Shown here piece after piece: positions 2,760 to 31,999 of a stretch of DNA of 32,000 bases; the stretch's first letter is position 1, and each line of letters opens with the position of its first letter. The notes beneath the pieces were generated by a model. It ran no database searches, was not told the DNA's origin, and saw only the letters and a program-made list of their open reading frames with translations. A program made the translations under genes and the position numbers. Where the stretch lies: NCBI GenBank assembly GCA_900548695.1, contig URLC01000001.1:239577-271576 (forward strand). Reading direction: 5' to 3'. The stretch is from an uncultured Mycoplasmatota bacterium. Its GTDB lineage: Bacteria; Bacillota_I; Bacilli_A; RF39; UBA660.

Positions 2760-2760
2760 A

Positions 2761-4181: not shown

Positions 4182-4267
4182 ATTTCAATTTATTTTTTTT
4201 GAGAAATTTAACATACTATTTTACATAACATTATTATTTTATAAGATAATATTATTGAGGTGGCTAA

Positions 4268-7048: not shown

Positions 7049-7070
7049 AAAAAACTAACATTTCTGTTAG
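7049..7070 (-). terminator. Intrinsic terminator downstream of ssrA
   Basis: On the minus strand: CTAACA-gaaa-TGTTAG followed by TTTTTT (plus-strand A-run 7049-7054). Confidence 0.5.
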
Positions 7071-7116
7071 TAATTTATTACTCTCGAATTATTAAAAATT
7101 CGAGTTTCTTATCATA

Positions 7117-7496: not shown

Positions 7497-7576
7497 ATGT
7501 AGGTAAATTATATCATAAAATAGTGAAAAAATCTATATGTAAAAATATGAAAAAAAGTGTCTATTTTTATAATATG

Positions 7577-7607
7577 TGCATGGAAATATAGGTGTTTATG
7601 GTATAAT
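7577..7607 (+). promoter_or_regulatory. Candidate extended -10 promoter for pflB
   Basis: TGgTATAAT at 7599-7607. The -35 is only weak (tgcatg/catgga). Confidence 0.35.
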
Positions 7608-7631
7608 ATGTATGGAAAGGTGGATAGATTA

Positions 7632-9875: not shown

Positions 9876-9877
9876 TT

Positions 9878-10588: not shown

Positions 10589-10599
10589 TATCTTTTTTT
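10572..10599 (+). terminator. Intrinsic terminator after pflA
   Basis: AAAGATATT-ttaaat-AATATCTTT followed by TTTT. Overlaps the stop codon. Confidence 0.6.
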
Positions 10600-10741
10600 G
10601 TTATATTGACTCTAATAAAGGAATTTTTAAATGAATATTAAATTTATGAAATTGAATTTACTTTAAAGATGGAGAATGTATTATTGTTATTTCTTCTTGT
10701 ATGAGTGAGGAAATTTTGTACATGTTATTACTGGTGATATT

Positions 10742-12133: not shown

Positions 12134-12178
12134 TATATTTTTCTTTTTTCTTTGCAAAATATAAATGAGGTGATAAAT

Positions 12179-12616
12179 GTGAAAAAACAATTTGAATTGG
12201 TGGAACGAGTATATAAGGATGCCGCTATGGGCAGATATTCTATTAACAAAGTATTAGATATGATAAAAAATAGGGATAATAAAATAACAGAGGATGTTAG
12301 AAAAATTTATGATGAATATAGTTCTTATGAAGAAAAAGCTAAGGAGATTTTAATTTCTAGGGAAGTTACACCAGAAGAAGAGGGAACTATCACTAAAATG
12401 ATGTCTTCTATGGGAATTTATAAAGAAGTGATGAGTGATAATAGTGATTCTGCAATTGCTGATATGTTAATTCAAGGAATGGTTATGGGAATAACTGAGA
12501 TGGAAAAATTGTTGAAAAATGTTAGTGATGACATTATTAAAGATGATGAAAAATTAGCAAAAGAGTTTTTAAAATTCCAAGAGAAATCTAAGAAACATAT
12601 AGAAAAGTATTTATAA
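12179..12616 (+). CDS. Hypothetical helical protein
   Basis: I favour GTG 12179 (RBS gaggtga) over the ORF-track start at 12152. No family recognised. Confidence 0.45.
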   Translation: MKKQFELVERVYKDAAMGRYSINKVLDMIKNRDNKITEDVRKIYDEYSSYEEKAKEILISREVTPEEEGTITKMMSSMGIYKEVMSDNSDSAIADMLIQGMVMGITEMEKLLKNVSDDIIKDDEKLAKEFLKFQEKSKKHIEKYL

Positions 12617-12630
12617 ATACTTTTTTATTT
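12604..12630 (+). terminator. Intrinsic terminator
   Basis: AAAGTATT-tata-AATACTTT followed by a T-run. Confidence 0.6.
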
Positions 12631-12675
12631 TGTATAATTTACTTTTTGATGGTTATGCTATAAATGTAGTAAATT

Positions 12676-12704
12676 TTGACAAGTTTTGGTGATTATGTTA
12701 TAAT
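12676..12704 (+). promoter_or_regulatory. Consensus sigma-A promoter for the NlpC/P60 gene
   Basis: TTGACA (12676-12681), exactly 17 nt, then TATAAT (12699-12704). Confidence 0.7.
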
Positions 12705-12731
12705 ATGGCTTATCTCGGGGGGAGATTATAC

Positions 12732-13754
12732 ATGAATTCAGATTATATACCGTCGCGCCGAAAATTATTTTTGGCTACGATGATTATTTTTATAAGCTTG
12801 ATGGTTTGTTATTTTTATGAATATCATCAAGTCTATAGTAGTATTGATGTTGTTGTGTCTAACACGGCAACGATTGAATATGGAAGTCCTAACTATGATA
12901 TTCGTACAGTTTTGGATTCTGTTGATGGAGATATAGTTTCGGTAAAAAAAGATATTGATACTACAAAAGTTGGACCACAAGAGATGGTTGTAGAAGTTGA
13001 GAAAAATCATATTATAAAAGAAGTTCCAATTATTGTTGAAGTTAAGGATACAATTGCACCGGAGATAACGCTTAAGAGTGATGCTCTTTCTTTAACTGAA
13101 GGTGATTCTTTTGATGTATTGAGCAATTTAGTTAAAGTTTTTGATAAAGTAGATGGAGATATTAATTATCAACAGAAAGATGTTGTTAATTTAAATGCTG
13201 ATACTAATTACTATACTGTTGATAGTAATATCGATACTAATGTTCCAGGTACTTATCAAGTTGTTGTGACGGCTGTTGATAAGTATGGTAATAAATCATC
13301 TGCTACTTATTCTGTTTTAGTAGAAGAAAAAGAAGAGCCAGTAATTTCTCAACCAGTTTATCAAGATCATTATGTTGCTAAGGGTGATATGAGCGCGTTA
13401 GTAAATCTTGCCTATTTTCTTGTAGGTAGTCCTTATGTTGCTGGTGGTAATACTCCTAGTGGGTTTGATTGTAGTGGCTTTGTTCAATATTTATATAGTC
13501 AAGTTGGCTTAACTGTTAGTAGAAGTAGTTCCACTCAGTTATATGATGGAGTAGCTGTAAGTTATGAAAATGCTCAGCCTGGGGATATTCTTATTTGGGG
13601 ATATGGTCCTGGAGTTGCTACTCATTCAGCTATTTATGTTGGTAATGGTAAAATGATTCATGCTACTAATCCTAGACAAGGTGTAATTGTTAGTGATGTT
13701 GCAGCTTGGACTAGAGGATCAGGTACTTATGTTATTGGAGTTAGAAGAGTTTAA
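12732..13754 (+). CDS. NlpC/P60 (C40) cell-wall peptidase with an N-terminal TM anchor and an Ig-like middle domain
   Basis: Start set at ATG 12732 (RBS gggggag), because the ORF-track ATG at 12705 abuts the -10 box. Catalytic FDCSGFVQYLY, plus THSAIYVGNGKMIHA. The middle region has the DTIAPEI...DGD Ig-like pattern. Confidence 0.85.
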   Translation: MNSDYIPSRRKLFLATMIIFISLMVCYFYEYHQVYSSIDVVVSNTATIEYGSPNYDIRTVLDSVDGDIVSVKKDIDTTKVGPQEMVVEVEKNHIIKEVPIIVEVKDTIAPEITLKSDALSLTEGDSFDVLSNLVKVFDKVDGDINYQQKDVVNLNADTNYYTVDSNIDTNVPGTYQVVVTAVDKYGNKSSATYSVLVEEKEEPVISQPVYQDHYVAKGDMSALVNLAYFLVGSPYVAGGNTPSGFDCSGFVQYLYSQVGLTVSRSSSTQLYDGVAVSYENAQPGDILIWGYGPGVATHSAIYVGNGKMIHATNPRQGVIVSDVAAWTRGSGTYVIGVRRV

Positions 13755-13847
13755 TAAATTAGAAACGGTATGTTTCTTTTTTTATAAAATTTAATTTTTT
13801 TGTATAATTCTTTCTTTTTGGGTAATTATATTGGTAGGAGGGATTAT

Positions 13848-14048
13848 ATGGAAACAGTACAAAAAATATTATTAGTCATCACTATTATTGGGGCTATTAA
13901 CTGGGGATTAATTGGAGTATTAGATTTTAATTTAGTTGATACTATTTTTGGAGTTAATTCCTTATTTAGCAGAGTGATATATAGTTTAGTTGGAATTTCA
14001 GGGCTAATTAATATTGGTATTTTATTTAATCACATAGAGGCTAAATAA
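13848..14048 (+). CDS. DUF378-family small membrane protein
   Basis: Start at ATG 13848 (RBS aggaggg). IIGAINWGLIGVLDFNLV is the typical DUF378 motif. Confidence 0.8.
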   Translation: METVQKILLVITIIGAINWGLIGVLDFNLVDTIFGVNSLFSRVIYSLVGISGLINIGILFNHIEAK

Positions 14049-14114
14049 AATTTTTAAAAAATAATTTTCAAGTTGTAGTAAAAGTGATACAATATTGTTG
14101 TATCTTTTTATTTT

Positions 14115-14190
14115 GCCGATTTAGCTCAGTTGGTAGAGCAGCGCATTCGTAATGCGGAGGTCGAAGGTTCAAGTCCTTTAATCGGCACCA
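14115..14190 (+). tRNA. tRNA-Thr (anticodon CGT)
   Basis: I folded the cloverleaf by hand. Acceptor GCCGATT/AATCGGC, D-arm GCTC-AGTTGGTA-GAGC, anticodon loop TTCGTAA, T-arm GAAGG-TTCAAGT-CCTTT, encoded CCA. A TGaTACAAT extended -10 lies at 14085-14093 upstream. Confidence 0.9.
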
Positions 14191-14273
14191 TAGGTAATTT
14201 GTTCTATTGCTTGAACTTTTTAATAAATCTTTAAATATTGTTTTGTTTTTGCGGGTTTTATTAACTCGTTTTT

Positions 14274-14729
14274 ATGTTTTTTATTTATAAAAAGTTTTTA
14301 TCTTTTCTTGTTTTAATGTTGATAAGAATCTTGAAAAATGTTATTATTGATATTAAGAATAGGGGTGGTACATTGGATTTTTTTATTTCTTTTTTTAGAG
14401 ATTTTTTGTCAGGCCCTTTGTATATTGTTGTTGTAGTGATTTCTGTTATAGGAATATTTGCATGTATTGGTTATATTGCTGAAGCTACGATGAAGCAAAA
14501 AGAAGAACAAAAAAAACTAGAAGAAATGTATGCAAAGGTACATTTAATACCTGCTGATAGTGAGACAGGATCTCATATTTCTTCAGGTGTTGAAACTGTG
14601 ATTTCTAGTGCTCAACTAAATCAAGTTGGTGCAGCATCGGCTACTAATATGGCCCAAGCTGCGACTTCTTTTGATTCTCAAAAGGTAATAACAACTACAG
14701 ATCATTCTAAGGCTGATTCTGAGCAATAA
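14274..14729 (+). CDS. Hypothetical membrane-anchored protein
   Basis: One clear TM helix (LYIVVVVISVIGIFACIGYIA) followed by a K/E-rich then S/A/T-rich tail. The true start may be TTG 14373 (RBS aggggtgg). Confidence 0.45.
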   Translation: MFFIYKKFLSFLVLMLIRILKNVIIDIKNRGGTLDFFISFFRDFLSGPLYIVVVVISVIGIFACIGYIAEATMKQKEEQKKLEEMYAKVHLIPADSETGSHISSGVETVISSAQLNQVGAASATNMAQAATSFDSQKVITTTDHSKADSEQ

Positions 14730-14783
14730 CTTTACTATTCTTGTTATTTTTTGTATACTATTATAGAAGCATGGAGGGATAAG

Positions 14784-15617
14784 ATGTCATTAACAGTTAC
14801 TGATATTGTATCAATACTGAGAAAACTTGGGGATATTTGTCTTGTTTGGATAATTTTTTATTTTATTTTAAAAAATATCAAAAACAATGTTAAGCTTTCG
14901 TTAATTTTCAAAGGTGTTGCGATTGTAATTATTTTAAGTTGGATTAGCGATTTATTAGGATTTACTACAATTGGAGTATTACTTGATTATATTATTCAAT
15001 GGGGACCAATTGCTTTGATTGTTATTTTTCAACCAGAAATTCGTACTATTTTGGAACAACTTGGTCGTAGTCAATTACTAGGACGTCATAAGGTTTTAAC
15101 CGTTGATGAAAGAGAGCATTTAGTTTATGAAATTGTAAATGCTGTTGATTATTTGAGAAAAGAAAAAATTGGAGCACTTATTGTGTTAGAACGGGATATA
15201 AGTTTAGGTAATTATATTGATAAGGCTAAAAAGCTTTATGCAGATTTGTCTAGTGATTTATTGATTGCAATTTTTTATGAGGGAAATCCATTGCATGATG
15301 GTGGTGTTATAATTCAGGGTGATCGTATTACTTGTGCGGGTGCAGTATTCCCTACTAGTAATAGTCCAAAATTAAATCGTAGATTAGGTACTAGACATAG
15401 AGCTGCTTTAGGTTTATCTGAAGAAACGGATGCTATTTGTATCGTTGTTTCTGAGGAGACTGGTCGAGTTTCTATAGCATTAAAGGGAGAAATGCTTTAT
15501 AACTTGACTTTAGATGATGTTCGTATGATGTTAATTGATGAACTTCGTCCAAAACAAGATATTGATTTAGATGAAGATGAAATAGATGAGGAAGAGATAT
15601 ATGAAGAAAATAAGTAG
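14784..15617 (+). CDS. cdaA: Diadenylate cyclase CdaA (c-di-AMP synthase)
   Basis: Start at ATG 14784 (RBS ggaggg). Three N-terminal TM helices. DAC-domain motifs HDGGVIIQG, RHRAALGLSEETDA and VVSEETGRVS. Confidence 0.9.
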   Translation: MSLTVTDIVSILRKLGDICLVWIIFYFILKNIKNNVKLSLIFKGVAIVIILSWISDLLGFTTIGVLLDYIIQWGPIALIVIFQPEIRTILEQLGRSQLLGRHKVLTVDEREHLVYEIVNAVDYLRKEKIGALIVLERDISLGNYIDKAKKLYADLSSDLLIAIFYEGNPLHDGGVIIQGDRITCAGAVFPTSNSPKLNRRLGTRHRAALGLSEETDAICIVVSEETGRVSIALKGEMLYNLTLDDVRMMLIDELRPKQDIDLDEDEIDEEEIYEENK

Positions 15618-16956
15618 AGCAATATTAACATTCTTTCGTCATATTGGATCATTTTTTGATAAATGGTTAATTACTCCCATTACAAAACTTATATTAAAGA
15701 TAGTAGAAATCTTTAAAGATAATGCTAAGAGCTTGGATCATGTTATGAATAAAAAATCTACGTTGATTGTTATAAGTTTATTACTAGCATTTGGAGTTTT
15801 TGTATTAATTGATCAAGAATCTAGTGTAATGATTGACCAATACGCAGAAGTTTTATATGATGAGCCAGTTACAGCAATTTATAATGAAGAGTTATATGTT
15901 GTTGAAGGTTTACCAAAAACAGTAGATATTACTTTAGTTGGACAACGTAGACATATATTTTTAGCAAAACAATCTCCTTCTAAAGGAGTATCTGTTGATT
16001 TGACTGGATTGAAACCAGGAAATCATAAAGTTACATTAAATTATTCACAGAGGTTGAAATCTTTAGATTATCGTTTGGATCCATCGGAAGTTACAGTTAC
16101 TATTTATGAAAAAGTTAGTGAAACCAAGAGCTTGACTGTTGATATATTACATCAAGATGATTTAGATAGTAAGCTTTATATTGATGATGTTGAGCTTGAT
16201 AGAACTGAAGTTATTGTGAAGGGTGCAAAATATAAATTAGACCAAGTTGCTACCGTTCGTGCTTTGGTTGATGTTGATGCTATTAGTAATCCAAAAGCTG
16301 GGGAAATTACGTTAAAAGATGTACCATTGGTGGCTTATGATGCTGAAGGTAAAACCGTTGATGTTGAGATTGTACCAAAGACTGTAGATGCTAAGTTAAA
16401 GATTACATCTCCAAGTAAAGAAATTCCAATTAAGGTAGTACCGACTGGAAATTTAGCATTTGGTAAATCTATAAAATCTATTGATACTAGTGTTTCTAGT
16501 GTTACGGTTTATGGTAGTCAATCTGCTGTTGATAAGATTGAAGAATTAGAAGTAGAAGTGGATGTAAAAGGTTTGGAAAGTGATAAAGAATTTAAAGTAA
16601 CACTTAAGAAACCAAAAGGAATTACAGATATTAGTGAAAAAACAATTACAGTTGATGTAAAAGTTGATAACTCTATTTCTAAGGAATTTACTATTGATAA
16701 TATCCAATTTAGAAATTTGGGTGATAATTACCGAGTACAGGCATTATCAGAAGATGATACTAAGGTAGTTGTTGTAGTTAAAGGTAGTGAAGATATTGTT
16801 AATAAAGTTGATCCTGCTTCCATTGTTCCATATGTTGATTTAGATGGATATGGTGTAGGACAACATGAAGTGGAAGTAAAAATAGAACGATCTGATTTAA
16901 GACTTACTTATACTCCAAAGACGAAGAAAATAAAAGTTAGAATTTTAGAGGGATAG
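15601..16956 (+). CDS. cdaR: CdaA regulator CdaR (YbbR-domain repeats)
   Basis: Overlaps the cdaA 3' end. N-terminal TM helix followed by repeated beta-rich YbbR-like modules (...VTVTIYEKVS..., ...VDAKLKITS...). Confidence 0.8.
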   Translation: MKKISRAILTFFRHIGSFFDKWLITPITKLILKIVEIFKDNAKSLDHVMNKKSTLIVISLLLAFGVFVLIDQESSVMIDQYAEVLYDEPVTAIYNEELYVVEGLPKTVDITLVGQRRHIFLAKQSPSKGVSVDLTGLKPGNHKVTLNYSQRLKSLDYRLDPSEVTVTIYEKVSETKSLTVDILHQDDLDSKLYIDDVELDRTEVIVKGAKYKLDQVATVRALVDVDAISNPKAGEITLKDVPLVAYDAEGKTVDVEIVPKTVDAKLKITSPSKEIPIKVVPTGNLAFGKSIKSIDTSVSSVTVYGSQSAVDKIEELEVEVDVKGLESDKEFKVTLKKPKGITDISEKTITVDVKVDNSISKEFTIDNIQFRNLGDNYRVQALSEDDTKVVVVVKGSEDIVNKVDPASIVPYVDLDGYGVGQHEVEVKIERSDLRLTYTPKTKKIKVRILEG

Positions 16957-17033
16957 TAATAAACTATCCTTTTTTTTGCATAAAAATTTAAGTCTTTCAT
17001 AAAGTTTATTAGAATTATGATAAGAGGTGGATA

Positions 17034-17372
17034 ATGAAAAAGTTATTACTAGTCTTTTTCCTTAGTATTATTTTACTTTCTGGATGTGGTAAGTATGGGG
17101 AAGAAGATGTTGTTTCAGATTTTAGTAAAAAAATTAAAGATGCAAAAAGTTATTTTGTGGAGGGAAATTTAGAACTTGTAAATAATGATGATGTATATAA
17201 TTATGATGTTGAAGTAGCTTTTAAGGCTGATAATTTTTATCGTGTTAGTTTAACTAATACTGCTAATGATCATACGCAAGTTATTTTGAAGAATAGTGAT
17301 GGGGTATATGTTATGACACACAAAAGTACACAACTTTTAAAATCAAATAAGTTTGAGGTTATATCAATTTAA
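17034..17372 (+). pseudogene. Lipoprotein (LolA-like/DUF4367-like N-terminus), apparently truncated by the island insertion
   Basis: Lipobox LLSGC. The conserved-looking sequence runs to ...VILKNSDGVYVMT, then an unrelated 17-aa tail and a stop, directly abutting mobile-element genes. Truncation is judged from the 112-aa length against my expectation for the family, so it is inference. Confidence 0.45.
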
Positions 17373-17391
17373 TTAGTATCTTATAAACACT

Positions 17392-17423
17392 AGAATATGT
17401 TAAACGCATATTCTTTTTATTTT
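17392..17423 (+). terminator. Hairpin + T-tract just inside the island's left end (terminator; an oriT inverted repeat cannot be excluded)
   Basis: AGAATATG-ttaaacg-CATATTCT followed by TTTTTATTTT, 27 nt upstream of the relaxase gene. Confidence 0.45.
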
Positions 17424-17449
17424 GTTAAAAAAGAGAGGAGATTGATATA

Positions 17450-18745
17450 ATGAATTATGCAATATTTAGAAGTGAACCTATTATGACTATGCACGATCTA
17501 GCACAAATTGGTTCTCATAATCAAAGAGAAAAGAAAGCATACAATTCTAATCCTGATATAAGAGTTGAAGATAGCTATAAAAATTTAGAATTAGTACCAT
17601 TAAATTACAAATATGTTAAAAAATTTAAAGAGATAACAAAAGAGTATGAAAAACAACATAATGAAAAACAAAAAACTGAAAGAAAAGAAAGACAAAGAAG
17701 TTATACCCAAATGCTTAATCAATCAAGAAATTGTGTAGCAGATGAATTATTATTTACTGCTTCACCTAAATTCTTTGAAAATATGAGTAATGATCATTTA
17801 ATGAAGTGGGCAAATACTTGTATGGAGTTTGTTTATAATGATTTAGGTTATAAGAAAGAACAAATACTTCACGCGACTATTCATTTAGATGAAAAATCAC
17901 CACATATTCATTGTGTAGTAGTACCACTTGTTAAAAAATTAGATAAAAGAACTAATACTGAAAGATGGACAATATCAAAAAAGCAATTTATAAAAGATAA
18001 AATACATCTATCTCAATTACAAGATAAGTATCACGAACGATTAACTGAAAAAGGATTTGATTTAGAAAGAGGTATTAAAGGAAGTGGTAGAGAACATTTA
18101 AAAACAAAAGAATTAAAGAAAACAACCAGATATTATGAAAATAAAGTGGAAAATATTAATAAAAATTTAGAACAAGCCATAAGCGATTTAAATGATAAAA
18201 TGAAATCTAGTAAAAATACTATTTTTGGTAATGAATATATTAAGGTTAAAAACGAAACCTTTGAATCTATGAATAATGTTATTAAAGAAACTAAAAAAGT
18301 ATTAGAATTTCAACCTAAAATAGAACAATTATTTAATGAAGTAAAAACATTTACTAAAAGTCATCAAATACTAGAAAAAGAAAATACAAATTTAAAAAAA
18401 GAAGTTAAATCTCTTACTACTAGAAATCAAACCTTGACTGATGAAAATAATAAATTAAGAACCTATATTGAAGCAATATTAGAAGCAATTAAAAAATTTT
18501 TTAGAAAGATATTACAATTTGGTAATGAAAAGGCAAAAGACGAAACAACTCTTGAAGTTAAAGATTATTATGATAATAATGATTTTGATATGAATGATGT
18601 AATTAAAATATCTAGAGGAACAACTAAACAAGATGAATTATTTGATTATGTAGAGGCACCAGATTATTTAAAAACAAGAGTTAAGGATATAGATGAATTA
18701 GAAAAAGATTATGAGAAATCTGATGACTTTGATTTAAGTAGATAA
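17450..18745 (+). CDS. mob: MobV-family (Pre/Mob) plasmid-recombination/relaxase protein
   Basis: Motif I HNQR (HxxR). Motif III HLDEKSPHIH (HxDExxPHxH). Long coiled-coil C-terminal half. RBS agaggag. Confidence 0.85.
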   Translation: MNYAIFRSEPIMTMHDLAQIGSHNQREKKAYNSNPDIRVEDSYKNLELVPLNYKYVKKFKEITKEYEKQHNEKQKTERKERQRSYTQMLNQSRNCVADELLFTASPKFFENMSNDHLMKWANTCMEFVYNDLGYKKEQILHATIHLDEKSPHIHCVVVPLVKKLDKRTNTERWTISKKQFIKDKIHLSQLQDKYHERLTEKGFDLERGIKGSGREHLKTKELKKTTRYYENKVENINKNLEQAISDLNDKMKSSKNTIFGNEYIKVKNETFESMNNVIKETKKVLEFQPKIEQLFNEVKTFTKSHQILEKENTNLKKEVKSLTTRNQTLTDENNKLRTYIEAILEAIKKFFRKILQFGNEKAKDETTLEVKDYYDNNDFDMNDVIKISRGTTKQDELFDYVEAPDYLKTRVKDIDELEKDYEKSDDFDLSR

Positions 18746-19805: not shown

Positions 19806-19913
19806 AGTTATCACCAATAATATTTTCCCATTAAATATTAATTTAACTAAAAAACCGAATACTATTCGTTGAAAATATGTTATAATAATAAAGTAAAGAA
19901 AAAGGAGCTAGAT

Positions 19914-20402
19914 ATGAAAAAAGAAAATTTAAATGAATATGTAAAAAAAATATCAGAAATTTTAGATGACAAAATTAAAATTATTACCTCAATCAAATAT
20001 TATTATGATTTAGAAGAACTTACTTCTTCATTAAATAACTTATCTAATGAAGAAGTAGAAAATGTATTAGAACAATTAATTAATGCAAAATTAGAAGAAA
20101 TACAGAAAAGTAGTAAGGTAGATAAATTTAGAGAAAATAATAGATTAGTTGATGATGTAACTGAATTTTTTTATGATAATAAAGAAGAAAATGGGACTAT
20201 TTTTGAAGAAGGCAGTTGTATAGCGTCTGATTTGATTTTAAAAGTAATTGGTATAAATGGTAGAAAGATTAAATTACCTGTAAAAATTTCATATGTAAAA
20301 GAATATTGTATAAGTAATTTGATTGAGGAAAAAAATATTAGAAAAACATTATTGTGGATAGTTTTAGAACTATCAGTTGTAAGTTATTTTTTAAACAATT
20401 AA
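19914..20402 (+). CDS. Hypothetical protein with a C-terminal TM helix
   Basis: Start at ATG 19914 (RBS aaggag). C-terminal TLLWIVLELSVVSYFL. Confidence 0.45.
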   Translation: MKKENLNEYVKKISEILDDKIKIITSIKYYYDLEELTSSLNNLSNEEVENVLEQLINAKLEEIQKSSKVDKFRENNRLVDDVTEFFYDNKEENGTIFEEGSCIASDLILKVIGINGRKIKLPVKISYVKEYCISNLIEEKNIRKTLLWIVLELSVVSYFLNN

Positions 20403-20524
20403 AAATAAAATATATAAGTAGTAGTTAGCAGTACCTAAATCTACCTTTTTAAGACACTTCTAATACTATGGAAGTGCTTTATATTGTAATTAAGTTATAT
20501 TTATATAGAAAAGAGCGTGATTTG

Positions 20525-21112
20525 ATGTTACAAGTTAGTAGAACCAACAATCTTAAAGTTCCAAAAACATTAGAAAATACTATTGATAATTTAAATAGTG
20601 TTGATGACAAAGTTGCAGTAAAACAAGCTCTGGCAACAGCAAATAATCAAAAATTTAATAAGAATAAAGTAAAAGAAAATATTGAAAAAGATGGTGAATT
20701 AGAAAGAATTGAAAAGATTCCATTTAATGCAAACGATTTAATGGTTATTACAGTTGTAAAAAAATTAGGAGCTTATATAATTGCAGTTACTGAAAAATCT
20801 CCTGCTAAATATAGAGGTGTGTTTGTTAATCGCATGCAAAATTTATCATTAGAAATATTAGAGTTGCTTTTACAAGCAAATTTTGTAAGAATAGATTGCT
20901 TAGATAATAAAAAAAAGAGAGAAGAATATCAAAAGGATGCAATAGTAAAGTTAAAAATGCTAGGATATATTTCAATGGTAGCAGAAAATTCAAATTGCAT
21001 TTTATCTAGGCAATTTAAACAAATCTCTATTCAAATTGGTGAATCTATTAACTTAATAGCTGCATGGAAGAAAAGCGACGATTCTAGATGGAACAGTCGT
21101 ACAAATAATTAA
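20525..21112 (+). CDS. avd: Avd-like DGR accessory protein (four-helix-bundle type) with an N-terminal extension
   Basis: Position is immediately 5' of the TR. The C-terminal ~125 aa follow the Avd pattern (SPAKYRGVFVNRMQNLSLEILELLLQAN ... LSRQFKQISIQIGESINLIAAWKKSD). The ATG at 20468 sits inside a hairpin, so I prefer 20525. The assignment rests on pattern memory, not a search. Confidence 0.5.
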   Translation: MLQVSRTNNLKVPKTLENTIDNLNSVDDKVAVKQALATANNQKFNKNKVKENIEKDGELERIEKIPFNANDLMVITVVKKLGAYIIAVTEKSPAKYRGVFVNRMQNLSLEILELLLQANFVRIDCLDNKKKREEYQKDAIVKLKMLGYISMVAENSNCILSRQFKQISIQIGESINLIAAWKKSDDSRWNSRTNN

Positions 21113-21156: not shown

Positions 21157-21482
21157 CTAGCGGCATTGCTAGTTTTGCGCCTTTGGCGCAGGGCTTTGTC
21201 TTTGTCCGCGCGGTCAATAAGAATGGTAATAGGAACAACAAATATAGATACAAACGCAATGGTGTTGTTCGCCCAGATTTGCTTTTGAAGAGATTATAAA
21301 ATCTAAAAAACAGGTCAGAGAAATATATTTTAAGTAAAATATATCAGAACTTTAAAGCAAAGGAATTATTTACTTTTCTAACCGCTATAATAGTGCGGTG
21401 GATAGATTTTAGTGCTCACACCAACAACGATATGTATGTATTTTTGAAGGTTAAAAAGGGGCACTTTTTTGGTGGTGATTAT
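21157..21482 (+). ncRNA. DGR template RNA region: two 5' GC-rich hairpins, the TR, and a ~200-nt structured spacer running up to the RT start
   Basis: Hairpins CTAGC-ggcatt-GCTAG (21157-21172) and TGCGCC-ttt-GGCGCA (21176-21190). TR at 21203-21282. Spacer hairpins ATATATTTT-aagt-AAAATATAT (21323-21344) and ACCGC-tataatagt-GCGGT. Possible long-range pairing CACCAA/TTGGTG. Transcript ends are not determined. Confidence 0.45.
21203..21282 (+). repeat. DGR template repeat (TR)
   Basis: 80-bp match to 22807-22886. All 14 mismatches are at A in this copy. Non-coding and locally GC-rich in an AT-rich genome. Confidence 0.92.
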
Positions 21483-22511
21483 ATGAATTTAGAAAATATA
21501 TTTAGCTTTGAAAACTTATATGATGCACATAAAAAATGTAGAAAATCAAAACAACATAAAGGTGAAGTTATAAGATTTGAAGTAAATATTTCAGAGAATA
21601 TTTATAAATTACAAAAAGAAATAATATCAAGGAAATATAAAGTAGGAAAATATAAGGAATTTATAATATATGAACCAAAAGAAAGATTAATACAAGCTCT
21701 TCCATATAGAGATAGAATTGTATTAAGATGTTTTTGCGATAATGTTTTAATTCCAAAGATTGAAAAAAAACTAATAAATGATAATGTTGCTTGTAGAAAA
21801 GGCAAAGGAACAAAATATGGAATGGATAGATTGAAATATTTTTTGCAAAAAGAATATTTTAAGAATAATGATAATAAAGTCTATTATTTGAAATGTGATA
21901 TTCGCAAATATTTTCCTAGCATTAACCATAATATTTTAATAAATAATCTAAAAAGGATTGACTTTACAGGTGATGAATTTTGGTTTATAAAAAAAATTAT
22001 AAATGAACAACCTGATAATTTAGAAAGAGGGTTAGCATTAGGTAATCAATCAAGTCAATGGTTTGCTTTATACTATCTTGATAAAATTGATAGATTGATC
22101 AAAGAAGAATTGCAAATTAAAAGTTATGTAAGATATATGGATGATTTTATTCTACTTCATCGTGATAAAAAGTATTTACAATATTGTTTAGAAAAAATAA
22201 ATAATGTTTGTATTGAAAAATTAGATTTGGAACTTAATCAAAAAACACAAATAGGACTTGCATATAATGGAATTGATTTTTTAGGTTTTAATCATATTTT
22301 AACCAATAGTGGTAAGGTTATTAGAAAACTTAGGTTTTCATCTAAGCAGAGAATGAGAAAACATATTAAAACCATAAGAAAACTTAAAGATAAATCCATA
22401 ATTGATGAAGAGTATGTTGGTATGAGAATTAACGCTTTTAAAGCACATTTAAAACATTCTAATGAAAAGAGTGTGGACAAATTATTATCCAATTTAGATA
22501 AAAAAATATAA
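21483..22511 (+). CDS. DGR-type reverse transcriptase
   Basis: Start at ATG 21483 (MNLENIFSFENLYDAHKKC...). Motif LGNQSSQ (22038-22058) is the DGR-RT [I/L]GxxxSQ signature. Catalytic YMDD at 22134-22145. No maturase or endonuclease domains. Confidence 0.9.
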   Translation: MNLENIFSFENLYDAHKKCRKSKQHKGEVIRFEVNISENIYKLQKEIISRKYKVGKYKEFIIYEPKERLIQALPYRDRIVLRCFCDNVLIPKIEKKLINDNVACRKGKGTKYGMDRLKYFLQKEYFKNNDNKVYYLKCDIRKYFPSINHNILINNLKRIDFTGDEFWFIKKIINEQPDNLERGLALGNQSSQWFALYYLDKIDRLIKEELQIKSYVRYMDDFILLHRDKKYLQYCLEKINNVCIEKLDLELNQKTQIGLAYNGIDFLGFNHILTNSGKVIRKLRFSSKQRMRKHIKTIRKLKDKSIIDEEYVGMRINAFKAHLKHSNEKSVDKLLSNLDKKI

Positions 22512-22576: not shown

Positions 22577-24499
22577 ATGAATAATCAAGATTTAACTTTA
22601 TTGTCGGAAGGACAAATTTGGGGTAATGATAAAGAATCTCAATTAGAAGTAATAAGAAAGTATGGAACAAAAGCTGCAATCACAGATTTATGTGTATTGA
22701 CAGGTAGCTATTTATGCGAAGATACAGATTATAATATTGATGAAGATAGTTCTTTAAAAGGCAGAACTAGTTGGTTTTGGACTAGATCTGATGATAACGA
22801 TAATGATGTCCGCGCGGTCCGTAAGTCTGGTAATAGGGGCCTCGAATATAGTTACACTCGCGATGGTGTTGTTCGCCCAGCTTTGCAATCTTCTGTAATT
22901 TTTTCTCAAATCTCCCCGAACAGAGTGAGGGGATACAACGGAACTGAAGAAGTAGAATATGGAGAATATCCACAATATGCTGCTGATTCAAGAATGCAAA
23001 GTATATTAGAATCAGAATATAATAGGGGAATGAATAAAACTGGAAGAAGTTATACATTTGATTCAGTAAAATATGATGATTATGATACAGGATTCAAACC
23101 AGTAACTTATGAAGAATATGAATATCAAGGAAAGAGATATATTCGTATAAGAGCAAATTCTGATTTTGGTGGAAATAAATTTAAACTTTCAAATGGTGTT
23201 GAATATAGAGATGGCGATTGTGTTTGGCTAGAAGTATCGCCTGTAAAATGGTTAATTGATGATAGAACAGGAATATTAGTTTCAAAATTAGGGTTAGTTT
23301 CTGGAATAAGATTTCTTGATAGAAATCATAATTATAAAGGTGATTTTAGTAGAACAGAAATGAAGGAATATCTTGATAGATATATGATACGCGATTTGAC
23401 TCAAACAGCAACATTTACTCGTATTCAAGATATGACACCAGAAGAAAAAACTCAATTTGAAGAAGAAAGAAAACAAGCTGAAAAAAGAAGAAATCCTTAT
23501 GGTTTAAAATTTGGACAAGTTAGTGAAGAAGAAATTATTAAGGGTGCAATAGAAAGTGGTATAGCAGTATTCTTGCATGGCCCTTCATCAGAAGGTAAAT
23601 CTGCAAGGGTAAAACAAATAGATCCTGATTGTGTAATTATTTATCTAAGAAATGCGACACCAGAAAGTTTAAATGGTAAAAGTGTTTACAATCAAGCAAC
23701 AGGTGAGATGATTGATGTTAAGCCAAGTTGGTTAAAAAAATTAGAAGAAAAATGCGAAAAAGAGCCAGATAGATTTCATATTGTATTTTTAGATGAAATT
23801 ACAAATGCACTACCAAGTATTCAAGGTATAGCATTTAATATAGTATTAGATAGAGAAGTTAATGGTATTTGGAAATTACCAGATAATGCAAGAATTGTTG
23901 CAGCAGGAAATGATATGAAAGATTCATTAGCGGCAAATCAATTAGCAGAACCATTATTTAATAGATTTGCTCATGTTTATATTAAAACAACTGCTGAAAG
24001 TTGGTTAAAATGGGCAAGTGAACATAATATACACCCTGCTATTTATTCATATATTGCTTATAAAAAAGGCGAAACATTAAGAAGTAAATATGATGGTGAA
24101 AAACCTAATGCAGATCCAAGAAAATGGGAAATGGCTTCTAAAATGTTATACGCAACAGGAAGTCCAGAAATGTTAAGAGCATTAGTAGGAGAGGATATAA
24201 CAAGAGAATTTGTACAATTTTGTAATCAACAAGTTATAACGCTAGATGATGTAATAAATGAAAATTATACCCAAAGAGACATACAAGCATTAAATACAGC
24301 AGAAAGATATGCGACAACTATGGGATTATCACAAGTTGATGATAACAACTTAGAAAAAGTAAGAGGTTTTGTTACAGGATTAGGAGCAGAGTTTGGGGCT
24401 ATTTTTGATGCTTTATGGACACATGGCGATGAAAGTAAATTAGAAAGACTTGCAGAAGTAAAACTTGCTGAAATGTCAGAAGGAGGTATAAGAAGATAA
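22577..24499 (+). CDS. DGR variable (target) protein: an N-terminal CLec/DUF6273-like ligand-binding domain carrying the VR, fused to a MoxR/AAA_5-type AAA+ ATPase
   Basis: Probable start is ATG 22577 (RBS ggtga; the ORF track starts at GTG 22562). FLLS-like LTLLSE, WFWTRS and GVVRPAL motifs flank the VR (codons 78-104). Walker A GPSSEGKS (23580-23603), Walker B IVFLDEI, sensor-1 VAAGN, NRF arginine. No signal peptide or TM helix. Confidence 0.85.
   Translation: MNNQDLTLLSEGQIWGNDKESQLEVIRKYGTKAAITDLCVLTGSYLCEDTDYNIDEDSSLKGRTSWFWTRSDDNDNDVRAVRKSGNRGLEYSYTRDGVVRPALQSSVIFSQISPNRVRGYNGTEEVEYGEYPQYAADSRMQSILESEYNRGMNKTGRSYTFDSVKYDDYDTGFKPVTYEEYEYQGKRYIRIRANSDFGGNKFKLSNGVEYRDGDCVWLEVSPVKWLIDDRTGILVSKLGLVSGIRFLDRNHNYKGDFSRTEMKEYLDRYMIRDLTQTATFTRIQDMTPEEKTQFEEERKQAEKRRNPYGLKFGQVSEEEIIKGAIESGIAVFLHGPSSEGKSARVKQIDPDCVIIYLRNATPESLNGKSVYNQATGEMIDVKPSWLKKLEEKCEKEPDRFHIVFLDEITNALPSIQGIAFNIVLDREVNGIWKLPDNARIVAAGNDMKDSLAANQLAEPLFNRFAHVYIKTTAESWLKWASEHNIHPAIYSYIAYKKGETLRSKYDGEKPNADPRKWEMASKMLYATGSPEMLRALVGEDITREFVQFCNQQVITLDDVINENYTQRDIQALNTAERYATTMGLSQVDDNNLEKVRGFVTGLGAEFGAIFDALWTHGDESKLERLAEVKLAEMSEGGIRR
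22807..22886 (+). repeat. DGR variable repeat (VR)
   Basis: Cognate of the TR. 9 codons differ: N->R, N->S, N->G, N->L, K->E, R->S, K->T, N->D, D->A relative to the TR-encoded sequence. Confidence 0.92.
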
Positions 24500-24891
24500 T
24501 GGGAGATAAGAAAGAAATATTACTATCATATATAAGAGTAAATGTTGCACCAATTTTAGTTGATTTTATATTTGGTAAAGATATAAATGGTGCTGTTGTA
24601 TTACCTGCCAATGTTGATGTTAAAGAGTTAAATGGTCATTATGATGGAACTGATTTTATGCCACCAAAATGGCTTAGTGAAATATTAAGTACAAATGCAA
24701 GTAAAATTTTAGTGATTGATAAAATTGATGCAATAGCAAAAGAAGAACAATTAAAATTCTGTGAATTGTTAGAACATAGAAAAATATCTACATTTGAATT
24801 ACCAAAAAGTTGTGTGATAATTGTAACAGCAAACGAAATAAATAAAGATAAGATAAATGAAGAAATATTCTCATTAGTTGCACGAATTTGA
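24499..24891 (+). CDS. Small protein resembling a P-loop-less AAA+ core fragment
   Basis: The start ATG overlaps the upstream stop (TAATG), which suggests translational coupling. ILVIDKIDAI (Walker-B-like) and IIVTAN (sensor-1-like) are present, but there is no GxxxxGK[ST]. Confidence 0.55.
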   Translation: MGDKKEILLSYIRVNVAPILVDFIFGKDINGAVVLPANVDVKELNGHYDGTDFMPPKWLSEILSTNASKILVIDKIDAIAKEEQLKFCELLEHRKISTFELPKSCVIIVTANEINKDKINEEIFSLVARI

Positions 24892-24901
24892 GGTATAAGT
24901 T

Positions 24902-26482
24902 ATGAAATATGATATTGCAGCATTAAAAAGAAAAATGCTTGTTAAATATCCCTTTTTTGGGAGTGTAGTAGCAAGTGTAGATTATAAAGAAAACAAAGAT
25001 ATACCAACCGCAGGTACAGATGGAGAAACAATTTACTATAATCCTAAATATTTAGAAAGTTTAAGTGTTGAAGAACAAACTTTTATATTTGCTCATGAAG
25101 TATGTCATATTGCATTTAATCATATCTTAAGAAGTGAAGGCAAAGATCCAGAGTTATGGAATATTGCTACAGATGGTGTTATTAATCAGTTTTTAAAACG
25201 AGACGGATTAAAAATGGCTCTGGGGGGTGTTGATATGGCAGAAGCTATTAATTACGATGCTGAACAGTTATATGACAAACTATTACAAGAAAAACAACAA
25301 AGACAACAACAAAATGGACAAGGTAATAATCAAAGTGAACAAGGTAATCAGCAACAAAATCAACAACAAAGCAGTGGTAGTAGTCAAGGCGAAAATGGTC
25401 AACAACAATCTCAATCACAACAACAAACTGGCGATTCACAAAATCAAGAAGACCAGAAACAAGATAGTGATGCAGGACAAAGTGGAGATGAACAGCAACA
25501 ATCTCAACAACAAAATAGTTCTAATAGTGGAAACTCACAAGAACAAGATAAGCAATCCCAAGAACAAAGCGGTGGTGACTCTGGAAAAGATTTACAAGAA
25601 GAAGATAAATCAAAGCAAGATGTTGGACATGATACTCATAGTATGTGGGAGCAAGCAGTTAAAAAGCACAAAGAGCAGCAAGAAAAATCTGATAAAAAAG
25701 AGAGCTTATTAGATAAACTTTTAGGAAAAGATGCAAAAGAAAAAGAAAAGAATGAACTAGAAAAGAAACAAGAAGAACTTGAGAGCATGGGAGAAAAAGA
25801 TGCTTTTAAGAAAAATCTTGAAGATAAGAAAAAGCAACTTGAAGAATTAAAAGAAGCAATTTCTAAACAAGCATCACAAGCAGGAACTTCAACAAATAGA
25901 GATGTTAGAATAGTTAATGATATTGGTACTGCAAAACCAATAGTTGATTGGCGATATGTTTTGAGAGAAGCAATTAAATATGATGTAGATTGGTCATATA
26001 AAAATGCTACATTAGAAGATGGAGTTGTTACTGCTAATTTAGAAGAGCAACCAATGCCAGAAACTGAAATTGTTCTTGATACAAGTGGTTCAATAAATGA
26101 AGTATTATTAAAGAACTTTTTAAGAGAATGTAAGAATATATTACAACATACTAAATTAAAAGTAGGATGTTTTGATACAGAATTTTATGGATTTTATGAA
26201 ATTAGAACAGAAGAAGATATAGAAAATATGCGATTTGAAGGTGGTGGAGGAACTGATTTTGATGTTGCTGTAGGTGCTTTTTCAAGAAGAGTAGAAAATA
26301 AAATAATATTTACTGATGGAGAAGCTTCAATGCCAGATATGCCACTTGATGCAATATGGATAGTATTTGGTGGAGAAAGAATTAATCCGAAAGGTGGGAA
26401 AGTGATTCACATTACACCTGAACAATTAGACAGACTATATTCATATGAAATGAATATAAAATCAAAGGGAAAAACAAGATAG
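24902..26482 (+). CDS. Putative Zn-metallopeptidase (DUF2201_N-like, HExxH) - Q/S/N/E-rich disordered linker - coiled coil - VWA-like domain protein
   Basis: HEVCH at 25094-25108. Low-complexity Q-rich stretch at aa 129-240. K/E-rich heptad-like stretch at aa 250-325. MIDAS-like DTSGS at 26078-26092. VWA proteins are the classical partners of MoxR-class ATPases. Confidence 0.8.
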   Translation: MKYDIAALKRKMLVKYPFFGSVVASVDYKENKDIPTAGTDGETIYYNPKYLESLSVEEQTFIFAHEVCHIAFNHILRSEGKDPELWNIATDGVINQFLKRDGLKMALGGVDMAEAINYDAEQLYDKLLQEKQQRQQQNGQGNNQSEQGNQQQNQQQSSGSSQGENGQQQSQSQQQTGDSQNQEDQKQDSDAGQSGDEQQQSQQQNSSNSGNSQEQDKQSQEQSGGDSGKDLQEEDKSKQDVGHDTHSMWEQAVKKHKEQQEKSDKKESLLDKLLGKDAKEKEKNELEKKQEELESMGEKDAFKKNLEDKKKQLEELKEAISKQASQAGTSTNRDVRIVNDIGTAKPIVDWRYVLREAIKYDVDWSYKNATLEDGVVTANLEEQPMPETEIVLDTSGSINEVLLKNFLRECKNILQHTKLKVGCFDTEFYGFYEIRTEEDIENMRFEGGGGTDFDVAVGAFSRRVENKIIFTDGEASMPDMPLDAIWIVFGGERINPKGGKVIHITPEQLDRLYSYEMNIKSKGKTR

Positions 26483-28818: not shown

Positions 28819-29238
28819 ATGGAAATTGATTTAAATGAGATAATAATATCTGGAACTATAAATAATGTAACAGATAATAATAAAGACTATATTAAATTTG
28901 GTTTAACTACTTTAAAGTATGATAAAAGAAAAGTATATTCAAGTTTAAATATTAATCGAAATCTTTATACAATCTATAAAGATTTTTTTGTTAAAGGAAC
29001 TAAAGTATTTATTAAAGGTTATCTTAACTCTTATATTACAAACAATAATATACAAAGTTTTATTACTGTAATAGATATTGCTGATAATCACAAAGAACTA
29101 ATAAATGGTAAAAGTGGACCTCATACACGAATTGATCCAGATGGCGTTCCTGTTTGGAATGGTAAAAGAGAAGAATCTATTCCACCAACCAAAGAAGAAT
29201 TAAAAGAAATGAAAGAACTACTAAAAGAGTTTGAATAA
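28819..29238 (+). CDS. Possible SSB-like OB-fold protein
   Basis: RBS aaaggag. The N-terminal NEIIISGTI...FGL...VFIKGYL pattern resembles an SSB OB-fold. It lacks the canonical acidic D-D-D-I-P-F tail. Confidence 0.35.
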   Translation: MEIDLNEIIISGTINNVTDNNKDYIKFGLTTLKYDKRKVYSSLNINRNLYTIYKDFFVKGTKVFIKGYLNSYITNNNIQSFITVIDIADNHKELINGKSGPHTRIDPDGVPVWNGKREESIPPTKEELKEMKELLKEFE

Positions 29239-31141: not shown

Positions 31142-31999
31142 ATGAGTAAAGATAAATTAGAAACAATATCAAATCTTTTTGAGGGTAATGAAATAAGAAG
31201 TATTTGGGATAATGAAAAAGAAGAATATTATTTTAGTGTTGTTGATGTTATTAGTGCATTAACTAATGCTAATATACCAAGAAATTACTGGAGCGATTTA
31301 AAAAGAAAATTAAAAGATGAAGGAAGTCAGTTGCACGAAAAAATCGTGCAACTCAAAATGAAGTCAAAAAAAGATGGAAAAAATTATTTGACTGATACTT
31401 TAGATACTAAAGGAATATTAAGATTAATTGAATCTGTTCCTAGTCCTAAAGCTGAACCTTTTAAACTTTGGCTTGCTAATTTAGGTAGCGAAAGAATAGA
31501 CGAGGTATTTGATCCTGAAATTGCTATTAACAGGGCAGTAGATTATTATAGAAAACGAGGATATAGCGATAAATGGATAAAAGACAGACTAGATGGAATC
31601 GTAGATAGAAAACAATTAACTGATGTTTGGAAAGATGGCGGTATTACTAAAAATTATGAATATGGGATACTAACAAATGAAATTTATCAAGAATGGTCTG
31701 GAATGAAAGCAAGTGAATATAAAGCATTTAAAGGACTTCGTAAAGAATCTTTAAGAGATAATATGTCCGATATAGAAGTCCTTTTGACAGACCTGGGAGA
31801 AACTGCAACAAGAGAACTTGCTAAAAAACATAAGCCTTATGGTTTAGAACAAAACAAAAAAATAGCAAGAATGGGTGGTAATACTGCTAAAGTTGCTAGA
31901 GATGACCTTGAAAGAAAATTAGGAGAATCAGTAATAACTAAAAATAATAACTTAAACTATAAATATATTGAATCGCAAGATAAAATAGAAAATAAATAA
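31142..31999 (+). CDS. Bro-N domain protein, DinD-like (DNA-damage-inducible protein D family)
   Basis: N-terminal Bro-N pattern (EIRSIWDNEKEEYYFSVVDVISAL). The C-terminal region resembles DinD (...DRKQLTDVW...GLRKESLRDNMSDIEVLL...). Assigned from memory of the family. Confidence 0.6.
   Translation: MSKDKLETISNLFEGNEIRSIWDNEKEEYYFSVVDVISALTNANIPRNYWSDLKRKLKDEGSQLHEKIVQLKMKSKKDGKNYLTDTLDTKGILRLIESVPSPKAEPFKLWLANLGSERIDEVFDPEIAINRAVDYYRKRGYSDKWIKDRLDGIVDRKQLTDVWKDGGITKNYEYGILTNEIYQEWSGMKASEYKAFKGLRKESLRDNMSDIEVLLTDLGETATRELAKKHKPYGLEQNKKIARMGGNTAKVARDDLERKLGESVITKNNNLNYKYIESQDKIENK

Follow-up and report, generated by a model that had tools for sequence, protein, structure and literature searches.

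A stretch of 32,000 nucleotides from an uncultured Mycoplasmatota bacterium (contig URLC01000001.1 of assembly GCA_900548695.1; the window hereafter, meaning the whole stretch that was analysed) carries a diversity-generating retroelement (DGR) whose target is a 640-residue protein that joins a variable N-terminal module to an AAA+ ATPase. Two further genes follow, one for a small, degenerate paralogue of the ATPase and one for a protein that combines a zincin metallopeptidase with a VWA domain. We refer to these three genes as the triad, and to the triad together with its DGR as the cassette. The DGR is active in nature, and the cassette is probably a programmable recognise-and-cleave device, in which the retroelement would alter what is recognised and the motor and peptidase would act on it. 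Its most likely role would be defence or exclusion, carried as cargo, to which we assign a probability of roughly 0.45.

To our knowledge, DGR targets of known role are almost all extracellular binders, and DGR sensors that act inside the cell have until now been proposed for multicellular cyanobacteria and proteobacteria with large genomes only. The cassette would bring the same logic to unicellular gut Bacilli, which are abundant and uncultured, and its three genes are compact enough to be cloned. It also comes with a set of natural contrasts that are already on hand: intact versus truncated reverse transcriptase, variable versus frozen variable repeat, and retroelement versus arrays of paralogues.

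An active retroelement upstream of the target

The DGR is complete and stands directly upstream of the target, in the order accessory open reading frame (ORF), Avd, template repeat (TR), reverse transcriptase (RT) and then the target itself (Table 1). The TR and the variable repeat (VR) within the target differ at 14 of 80 nucleotides, and all 14 mismatches fall on adenines of the TR (14 of the 27 it contains), a placement with a hypergeometric p of 1.3e-8. The original prediction, which was made from the letters and their ORFs, had located the VR early in the protein at codons 78-104, and the alignment of TR and VR agrees with this but for its first codon. Adenine-bearing codons of the TR are mostly of the type AAY, complemented by AAA, AAG and AGA, and can encode about 5.7e13 peptide variants. 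Of the mismatches, only the one at repeat position 75 (A at 21277 in the TR, C at 22881 in the VR) is constant across the six loci compared, and it may mark the boundary between the initiation of mutagenic homing element and its counterpart (IMH/IMH*) that sets the direction of homing. A search for a hairpin or inverted repeat 3' of the VR found none.

The activity of the DGR can be read from natural variation. Between the window and L002 (we use L numbers for related loci and P numbers for related proteins), the TR shows no difference over 80 nucleotides, the VR has 14 differences in 80, and 4 are found in the 300 nucleotides that follow. Among the 120 nearest database proteins, which are 92-98% identical, column entropy exceeds 1.2 bits only at residues 82-96, and of the 13 VR positions with high entropy, 12 are codons templated by adenines. 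VR positions that lack a templating adenine, such as G85, R95, G97 and R100-P101, are unchanged among alleles. In 11 related loci, with target identities that go down to 51%, a TR/VR pair with adenine-only mismatches is found at this same N-terminal site.

Database alleles also provide a natural control. P0005, P0064 and P0070 have identical backbones and 7-11 differences in the VR, and each stands behind an intact set of accessory ORF, Avd and RT (342 residues). The P0011 allele, on the other hand, stands behind a truncated RT of 187 residues with no Avd called by Pfam, and human-gut assemblies contain exactly this sequence in 142 index blocks and on at least 77 contigs. Among these alleles, the VR varies where the DGR is intact and is frozen where the RT is truncated. 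The frozen allele of this human-gut lineage looks like a leftover after decay of the DGR. In the frozen-VR lineage (L077-L081, 8374-8937 and 9001-10932) the VR reads NKHGDRDDLFRYLRY and is constant across at least 77 contigs. Locus L032, which has four target copies behind an RT, shows four identical VRs and no TR match with adenine-only differences, and was set aside as evidence.

The protein parts of the DGR are recognisable to different degrees. RT orthologues in relatives are called at 342 residues, the length that results from the probable start of the window RT. Avd matches the NCBIfam model DivGenRetAVD at 3.6e-5, under that model's cut-off, in addition to the profiles given in Table 1. 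The accessory ORF is found invariably just before Avd, at a fixed distance together with Avd and RT in eight sources of the neighbourhood set described below and also in L082-L084, and may encode an undescribed DGR accessory protein. Its coordinates in these three relatives are 1348-1836 (L082), 1327-1815 (L083) and 1323-1811 (L084).

A variable module on a cytoplasmic motor

Public gene calls mostly start the target at 22568, which gives 643 residues. Searches of the target against Pfam, NCBIfam and PADLOC returned nothing over threshold, and its description draws on models and remote comparisons. The full-length AlphaFold2 (AF2) model, based on an alignment of 56 family representatives, has a mean predicted local distance difference test (pLDDT) score of 93.3, and the model of residues 1-265 reaches a pLDDT of 96.1 and a predicted template-modelling score (pTM) of 0.93. 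In the model the VR corresponds to a β-hairpin, with strands at residues 78-81 and 87-90 and their loops.

The N-terminal domain is probably DUF6273-like, judging from its sequence. The Pfam profile aligns residues 46-103 of the window protein to profile positions 111-168 of 172 with an E of 0.008 (16.5 bits against a gathering threshold of 23.5), and the VR ends at residue 104, where the alignment stops. DUF6273 is the sole recurring family among the N-terminal fragments scanned (7 of 48, best E 0.0018). A transitive link is provided by P0214, which passes the DUF6273 gathering threshold with 26.3 bits and aligns to the whole N-terminal module (E 1.4e-90, residues 3-303, 38-40% identity over 284-285 positions). 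P0214 has 818 residues and contains two tandem N-terminal modules, followed by six DUF4116 repeats where the ATPase would be. A C-lectin fold, as known for DUF6273, might apply to the N-terminus of the target as well; a Foldseek search with the model of residues 1-265 gave no significant match in the PDB (best E 0.14), and the best match in BFVD, itself a DUF6273 protein, was not significant either (E 0.11, template-modelling (TM) score 0.26). From the earlier proposal of a DUF6273 domain with a C-type lectin fold, the weak family link therefore stands and the fold did not find a structural match.

Two other ideas were rejected. The first is a circular permutation of DUF6273, in which residues ~212-262 followed by 1-108 would form the canonical domain. 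It came from P0214, in which the Pfam match spans the end of one N-terminal module and the start of the next, and it is unsupported: artificial permutants of 41 family members matched DUF6273 in 5 cases (best E 1.1e-4), and the window protein showed no gain (E 0.0074, in the same stretch). The second concerns β-propellers (designed and PQQ), which were the only matches of the profile searches among PDB sequences and which we judged spurious, because they are sums of weak repeated hairpin matches with an i-Evalue above 20 for each domain. The second β-rich part of the module, residues 105-260, is modelled with a pLDDT of about 96, and Foldseek finds nothing for it with E below 0.1 in BFVD or the PDB. 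Either a new fold or a piece of DUF6273 that is displaced in sequence could account for it.

The C-terminal half is placed among the AAA+ ATPases of the MoxR class by its predicted structure. The top Foldseek matches of residues ~317-640 in the PDB are NorQ (9qh4) and CbbQ2 (6l1q), with E values of 5e-9 to 2e-8 and TM scores of about 0.64 normalised to the target (range 0.6-0.67). A Walker A motif (GPSSEGKS, residue 335, 23579-23602) and a Walker B motif (IVFLDE, residue 402, 23780-23797) are intact, as is AAGN, the sensor-1 motif, and NRF is present too. At the sequence level the kinship is remote: AAA_5 matches the window protein under its cut-off (E 0.006-0.02), NCBIfam including its MoxR models gives no match, and the family profile recovers no MoxR protein among PDB sequences. 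Among the 56 family representatives, 14 match AAA_5 (best 4e-7) and 3 match AAA_3.

Where this protein works matters for any reading of its function. Neither a hydrophobic N-terminus nor a transmembrane (TM)-like segment was detected in the target by hydropathy, which is a crude test (top Kyte-Doolittle 19-residue mean 1.13), and the same analysis found no export signals in either partner protein. An adhesin-type target that leaves the cell by a non-classical route and binds extracellular ligands would be in line with the majority of surveyed cellular DGR targets, which have signal peptides or TM segments and bind such ligands (PMC8144416), and with the DUF6273 domains of gut phages, which are presumed to bind receptors (PMC10743442; bioRxiv 2024.10.15.618418). 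However, all three proteins lack recognisable export signals, and a C-terminal ATP-dependent motor with an intact P-loop would be sensible only in the cytoplasm. We give this explanation almost no credence and treat the target as a cytoplasmic protein, as had been proposed from the absence of an export signal.

Two partner proteins complete the operon

The start of the small AAA gene overlaps the stop of the target in the sequence TAATG, an arrangement that suggests translational coupling of the two. Its family profile aligns to the target family in hhalign with a probability of 97.4 and an E of 1e-11, over target residues 318-449. Walker A and its P-loop are missing and the D-E of Walker B is replaced by D-K, which makes the original description as a P-loop-less AAA-like protein accurate and adds that it is a paralogue of the ATPase next to it.

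The third gene begins after a gap of 10 nucleotides. Its product has a zincin motif (HEVCH) at residue 65 (25094-25108) and a VWA domain with a full metal ion-dependent adhesion site (MIDAS), composed of DTSGS at residue 393 (26078-26092) and the downstream T and D. Peptidase and VWA domain are separated by a low-complexity linker of about 200 residues that is rich in Q, S, E and K (25290-25940, residues ~130-345) and has CAACAA-type repeats in its DNA. Across loci the length of this protein varies from 369 to 761 residues, mostly in the linker. Pfam reports only DUF2201_N, DUF2201, SprT-like and weak AAA matches for the three triad proteins and no VMAP-type domain, although the presence of a VMAP model in the Pfam copy used is unconfirmed (bpMoxR is present).

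At the level of genes and motifs, the original prediction has held up well. The 640- and 526-residue reading frames and both junctions between the triad genes were confirmed, the motifs named for the ATPase, the peptidase and the VWA domain are all in place, residues 300-640 turned out to be MoxR-type by structure with AAA_5 itself below threshold, and the last gene was correctly called as DUF2201_N plus VWA.

A widespread triad with an old but often lost retroelement

The target family is large, with 613 clusters at 50% identity (E <= 1e-30), and full-length relatives were found in 148 stretches of GTDB species genomes. Host genomes are mostly those of uncultured gut Bacilli, with some Clostridia, from humans, mice, chickens, rabbits and ruminants. 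These hosts are known mostly as metagenome-assembled genomes (MAGs); the one closed Bacilli chromosome in the set measures 1.46 Mb.

For the neighbourhoods we compared 75 related loci and the window (76 sources). The target is present in 71 of them, the zincin-VWA protein in 63 and the small AAA protein in 57, and no further conserved gene was found beside the triad. In about 60 of the 75 related loci the three genes stand together as one unit, and the flanks of these loci are unrelated. In the flanks of loci without a DGR, 199 Pfam families occur in 141 ORFs, none more than four times, and most of them are housekeeping families. Since the triad is conserved and nothing else is shared in the flanks, it can be regarded as a self-contained, horizontally moving cassette.

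The RT was counted in the 65 loci with enough upstream sequence. It is full in 13 (11 with an Avd match), a 5'-truncated remnant directly upstream of the target in 9, and absent in 43. The linkage that had been expected from the window is therefore real for the triad and not general for the RT. Nevertheless, the association of DGR and target is old, because the targets it spans are 51-98% identical, and it has often been lost. In L050 and L071, whose targets are only 51-56% identical, the order of avd, TR, RT and target is kept and the VR lies at the same codons.

One could imagine that a DGR merely landed beside an older ATPase operon, so that variation is neutral or deleterious and the link has no functional meaning. 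Truncated or missing RTs in 9 and 43 loci would fit such a decaying association, as would stops and frameshifts in the VRs of L017, L050 and L071 and the very wide spread of one frozen allele. What speaks against it is the persistence of arrangement and VR codons in targets as distant as those of L050 and L071, the sparing of the scaffold residues G85, R95, G97 and R100-P101 by the changes in the VR, and the apparent placement of the VR, which falls where its DUF6273-like domain ends at the C-terminus, as it does in other, established targets of DGRs. We strongly doubt this explanation and prefer a DGR that serves the function of the triad.

Within the target, the two halves evolve at different rates. 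Identity of the N-terminal module versus the ATPase is 48% versus 93% for L031, 46% versus 92% for L035 and 43% versus 91% for L039. Some loci without a DGR carry tandem, full-length sensor-ATPase paralogues that share one pair of small AAA and VWA genes: L025 has five copies (4669-17917), and there are two in each of L033, L040, L042, L044 and L058. Identity between such paralogues is 69-88% for the N-terminal module and 91-98% for the ATPase, with L058 as an exception (32% versus 68%). Such arrays look like a germline alternative to hypermutation. The two tandem copies in L057 are 99-100% identical.

The N-terminal module is also found in other company. In P0205, P0208, P0230 and P0250 it is joined to about 300 residues without a Pfam match. 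Given these C-termini and the one of P0214, the module appears to have been shuffled between contexts.

How the cassette might work

The mechanism that we consider probable starts from the DGR, which rewrites about 13 codons of the β-hairpin and loops in the DUF6273-like domain of a cytoplasmic protein. Following the example of NorQ/NorD and CbbQ/CbbO, the ATPase would assemble as a hexamer and dock the VWA protein. Specificity would lie in its six variable N-terminal modules, which would bind a protein ligand in the cytoplasm. Remodelling driven by ATP could then pass this ligand on to the tethered zincin peptidase, or it could release and activate the peptidase. The ligands would be proteins of invading phages or of rival mobile elements, against which the DGR would hold about 5.7e13 possible peptide variants ready in advance. 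Relatives without a DGR would rely on fixed domains or on tandem sensor-ATPase paralogues. Since the variable domain sits on the ATPase itself, a clear prediction can be made: the sequence of the VR selects the protein on which motor and peptidase act.

Taken a step further, the cassette might be an intracellular, anticipatory, immune-like receptor, in which the DGR writes up to about 5.7e13 specificities onto the substrate-recruiting face of an AAA+ unfoldase or remodeller and thereby makes targeted proteolysis programmable. We put this forward tentatively. If true, it would be an analogue of antibody-guided degradation, with the DGR-less relatives reaching the same end by germline arrays of paralogues, and fusion of a hypervariable domain to the motor itself would be seen here for the first time. 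DGR-based intracellular sensing would then extend beyond multicellular bacteria and be common in uncultured gut Bacilli and Clostridia. The cassette also gives the unstudied families DUF2201 and phrog_1297/1314 a function that can be tested and, if the mechanism holds, is a natural scaffold for programmable recognition and degradation of proteins inside cells.

Defence, counter-defence or chaperone?

The relatives outside of the family bear directly on the role of the cassette. In tblastn searches the target has 749 phage records and the zincin-VWA protein has 687. Both show the same taxon spectrum, which includes N4-like Schitoviridae, Bacillus phage G and jumbo phages (PA5oct, for example). 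The phage matches cover only target residues ~300-630 at 25-31% identity, and plasmid matches are likewise limited to the ATPase half; the N-terminal module is in no phage or plasmid record of the collections searched. A megablast search of the cassette against phages and plasmids yielded no match, and no close relative of the target protein was found among the viral contigs of IMG/VR.

Several observations weigh against a defensive, programmable device. PADLOC 2.0 returned no family at E <= 0.01 for any of the three triad proteins. Defence genes in the flanks are few and scattered (among them AbiE, AbiD and components of MADS), with no recurrent family. Lytic N4-like and jumbo phages have a homologous pair of ATPase and peptidase-vWA protein as a core module, for which a function as a virion-assembly chaperone with peptidolytic processing has been proposed (Iyer et al. 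2021, PMC7824862). Two thirds of the evaluable loci do without a DGR. On the side of the mechanism, we infer hexamer formation, the contact of VWA protein and ATPase, and peptidase activity from analogy, and the C-lectin fold of the variable domain lacks confirmation by Foldseek in PDB and BFVD. Furthermore, four TR codons of the AAA/AAG/AGA type can mutate to stop codons, and the assembled VR is broken in 3 of the 13 DGR-positive reference loci, with one stop in L050, two stops in L071 and a frameshift in L017. The lesions lie at ~10250 in L050, ~10220-10260 in L071 and ~10240 in L017. They could be null alleles that result from mutagenesis of AAA, AAG and AGA codons, or they could be an artefact of consensus assembly from a mixed VR population.

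Because no defence model matches, the neighbourhoods are uninformative and the nearest outside relatives are core phage genes, two other roles deserve attention. In the first, the device would serve counter-defence or host takeover: the variable domain would recognise host proteins, for example polymorphic defence or restriction proteins, and the MoxR/VWA-peptidase machinery would inactivate them on behalf of the island or a helper. The copy in the window is indeed cargo between a relaxase and a putative serine recombinase, in the company of XRE regulators, and both the lack of a PADLOC match and the many lytic-phage relatives (749 and 687 records) are in agreement with such a role. Most copies, however, lie among housekeeping genes with no recognisable mobile element close by, many gut samples have the frozen-VR allele stably in the chromosome, and neither a close IMG/VR relative nor a phage or plasmid record with the N-terminal module turned up in the collections searched. 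We consider counter-defence unlikely.

The second is a dedicated chaperone or co-chaperone with a processing peptidase, which would assemble or mature a complex of its client. The N-terminal module would bind the client, and DGR variation would only tune affinity. It can point to the characterised MoxR/VWA pairs (NorQD, CbbQO, RavA-ViaA), which are maturation or remodelling factors and include the best structural matches, to the proposal of virion assembly and peptidolytic processing for the phage pair (PMC7824862), and to the majority of family members that function without a DGR. A fixed client, though, does not explain why about 13 codons are hypermutated, why the N-terminal module diverges so fast and why there are tandem arrays; moreover, no conserved client gene accompanies the cassette, and the island contains no virion or conjugation-pilus genes. 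This makes a chaperone quite unlikely in our view.

Defence or exclusion thus remains the role that we favour. Compared with the conflict module that had been suggested from the window, the architecture of a cytoplasmic sensor-motor with an active DGR stands, and the defensive part is left without a match among the three triad proteins in PADLOC and without a defence-island signal in the flanks.

The carrier island and the layout of the window

The DNA of the window has a low guanine-cytosine content. Its first part (~1-17,000) consists of housekeeping genes, among them RNase R, pyruvate formate-lyase with its activase, and CdaA-YbbR. From ~17.0 kb on follows an island that is inserted after cdaA-ybbR and whose right end lies outside of the window. 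Its order is Mob_Pre relaxase, XRE regulator, DGR with triad, a small membrane protein, a second XRE regulator and a putative serine recombinase, in keeping with the mobilizable island beside XRE regulators that had been proposed. Among the window ORFs of the island, Pfam detects neither virion genes nor conjugation-pilus genes. The same island is found in L002 (92-100% protein identity) and L054 (81-98%), both MAGs of uncultured gut Bacilli, in which the putative recombinase has orthologues that are 98-99% identical. Several small ORFs of the island are unannotated, and the ORFs at 28819-29238 and 31142-31999 have no NCBIfam match.

A second type of island with the DGR cassette occurs in L004, L017, L023, L083 and L084. 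It has a DNA cytosine methyltransferase and a small XRE pair ~4.5 kb upstream of the target, before the accessory ORF, Avd and RT. DGR and triad therefore travel on at least two different mobile backbones.

Table 1 Features of the cassette and its carrier island in the window (positions of the whole stretch)
Feature	Position	Strand	Basis
Mob_Pre relaxase of the carrier island	17450..18745	+	Pfam Mob_Pre 2e-30; same island in L002 and L054
DGR-associated accessory ORF (longest ORF 177 residues; 162 in relatives)	19869..20402	+	only profile match phrog_35976, a family of unknown function
Avd accessory protein	20468..21112	+	phrog_3206 'Avd protein of DGR' 1e-13; Pfam bAvd 1e-4
Template repeat (TR), 80 nucleotides, 27 adenines	21203..21282	+	repeat comparison with the VR
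DGR reverse transcriptase	21393..22511	+	probable start ATG 21484, giving 342 residues; RVT_1 8e-16; PADLOC RT 1e-34
DGR target, 640-residue fusion of variable N-terminal module and predicted MoxR-class AAA+ ATPase	22577..24499	+	ATG 22577; AF2 model
Probable DUF6273-like domain, residues 1-104, VR at its C-terminal end	22577..22888	+	motifs LTLLSE, WFWTRS, GVVRPAL; sub-threshold Pfam match
Variable repeat (VR), 80 nucleotides, target codons 77-104	22807..22886	+	TR/VR alignment
Second β-rich part of the N-terminal module, residues 105-260	22889..23356	+	conserved EYGEYPQ and VWxEVxPxxWL
AAA+ ATPase module, residues 317-640	23525..24499	+	Foldseek; phrog_1297 ATPase 2e-47
Degenerate AAA α/β paralogue, 130 residues	24499..24891	+	hhalign against the target family
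Zincin metallopeptidase-VWA protein, 526 residues	24902..26482	+	DUF2201_N 3e-38; DUF2201 VWA 5e-13; phrog_1314 1e-67
Putative large serine recombinase of the carrier island, 529 residues	29540..31129	+	label from a reading of the translation alone

Comparison with known systems

DGR-diversified C-lectin sensors have already been proposed for cytoplasmic MoxR/vWA conflict systems (Kaur et al. 2020, PMC7159879; Doré et al. 2024, PMC10907252). As in these VMAP-ternary systems, a MoxR/vWA operon that also encodes a peptidase has a component, predicted to be cytoplasmic, whose ligand-binding domain is hypermutated by the DGR, and the proposed logic leads from sensor to ATPase to effector. The arrangement, however, is a different one. 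In VMAP-ternary systems the C-lectin/FGS domain is C-terminal and resides on the vWA protein or on a STAND NTPase, MoxR is a separate protein and VMAP forms the third core part, whereas here the variable domain is N-terminal and on the ATPase itself, and Pfam reports no VMAP-type domain. Their peptidases are trypsin-like or caspase-like, in contrast to the DUF2201_N zincin fused to VWA in the window, and the inactive AAA paralogue is an addition to their set. Hosts also differ, with multicellular cyanobacteria, gammaproteobacteria and actinobacteria on the one side and uncultured gut Bacilli and Clostridia on the other.

A second comparison is offered by the phage pair of MoxR and metallopeptidase-vWA proteins. 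Both proteins are homologous to those of the cassette (phrog_1297 2e-47, phrog_1314 1e-67), their genes are adjacent and the same co-chaperone domains are used. The phage ATPases, though, have ~320-360 residues, and none is accompanied by an N-terminal module, a DGR or a small AAA protein. They belong to phage genomes, whereas the copy in the window is located on a mobilizable island and its relatives in chromosomal contexts.

With regard to the variable domain, DUF6273 has been described as a C-lectin-like domain of DGR targets with the VR at its C-terminal end (PMC10743442; bioRxiv 2024.10.15.618418). Tentaclins are multidomain proteins in which an N-terminal DUF6273 carries the VR in a β-hairpin and flanking loops (Baykov et al. 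2023, PMC10743442). The target in the window appears to share with these gut-phage proteins the position of the VR at the end of the domain, and in both groups some relatives retain the target after loss of the DGR. The gut-phage proteins are receptor-binding proteins of virions in which Ig-like domains follow, while the target here is predicted to be cytoplasmic, is fused to an ATPase and matches DUF6273 below threshold.

NorQ/NorD and CbbQ/CbbO, finally, provide the best structural matches for the ATPase, and in them as well the gene of a VWA partner with a MIDAS adjoins that of the motor. These pairs serve fixed metabolic clients (cNOR and Rubisco) and have neither a peptidase nor a variable domain, and their ATPases have no detectable sequence similarity to the target family.

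The literature on DUF2201, on DUF6273 and on DGRs with AAA or MoxR proteins yielded no description of this fusion, and the large DGR survey of Roux et al. makes no mention of ATPase targets. The original prediction had not recognised the fusion as a described system, which applies to the exact fusion and not to the concept behind it (PMC7159879, PMC10907252, PMC10743442, PMC7824862). DGR-diversified cytoplasmic MoxR/vWA sensors, N-terminal DUF6273 VRs and the phage pair of MoxR and metallopeptidase-vWA proteins are already published; what is new is the fusion itself, its host range and its set of partners.

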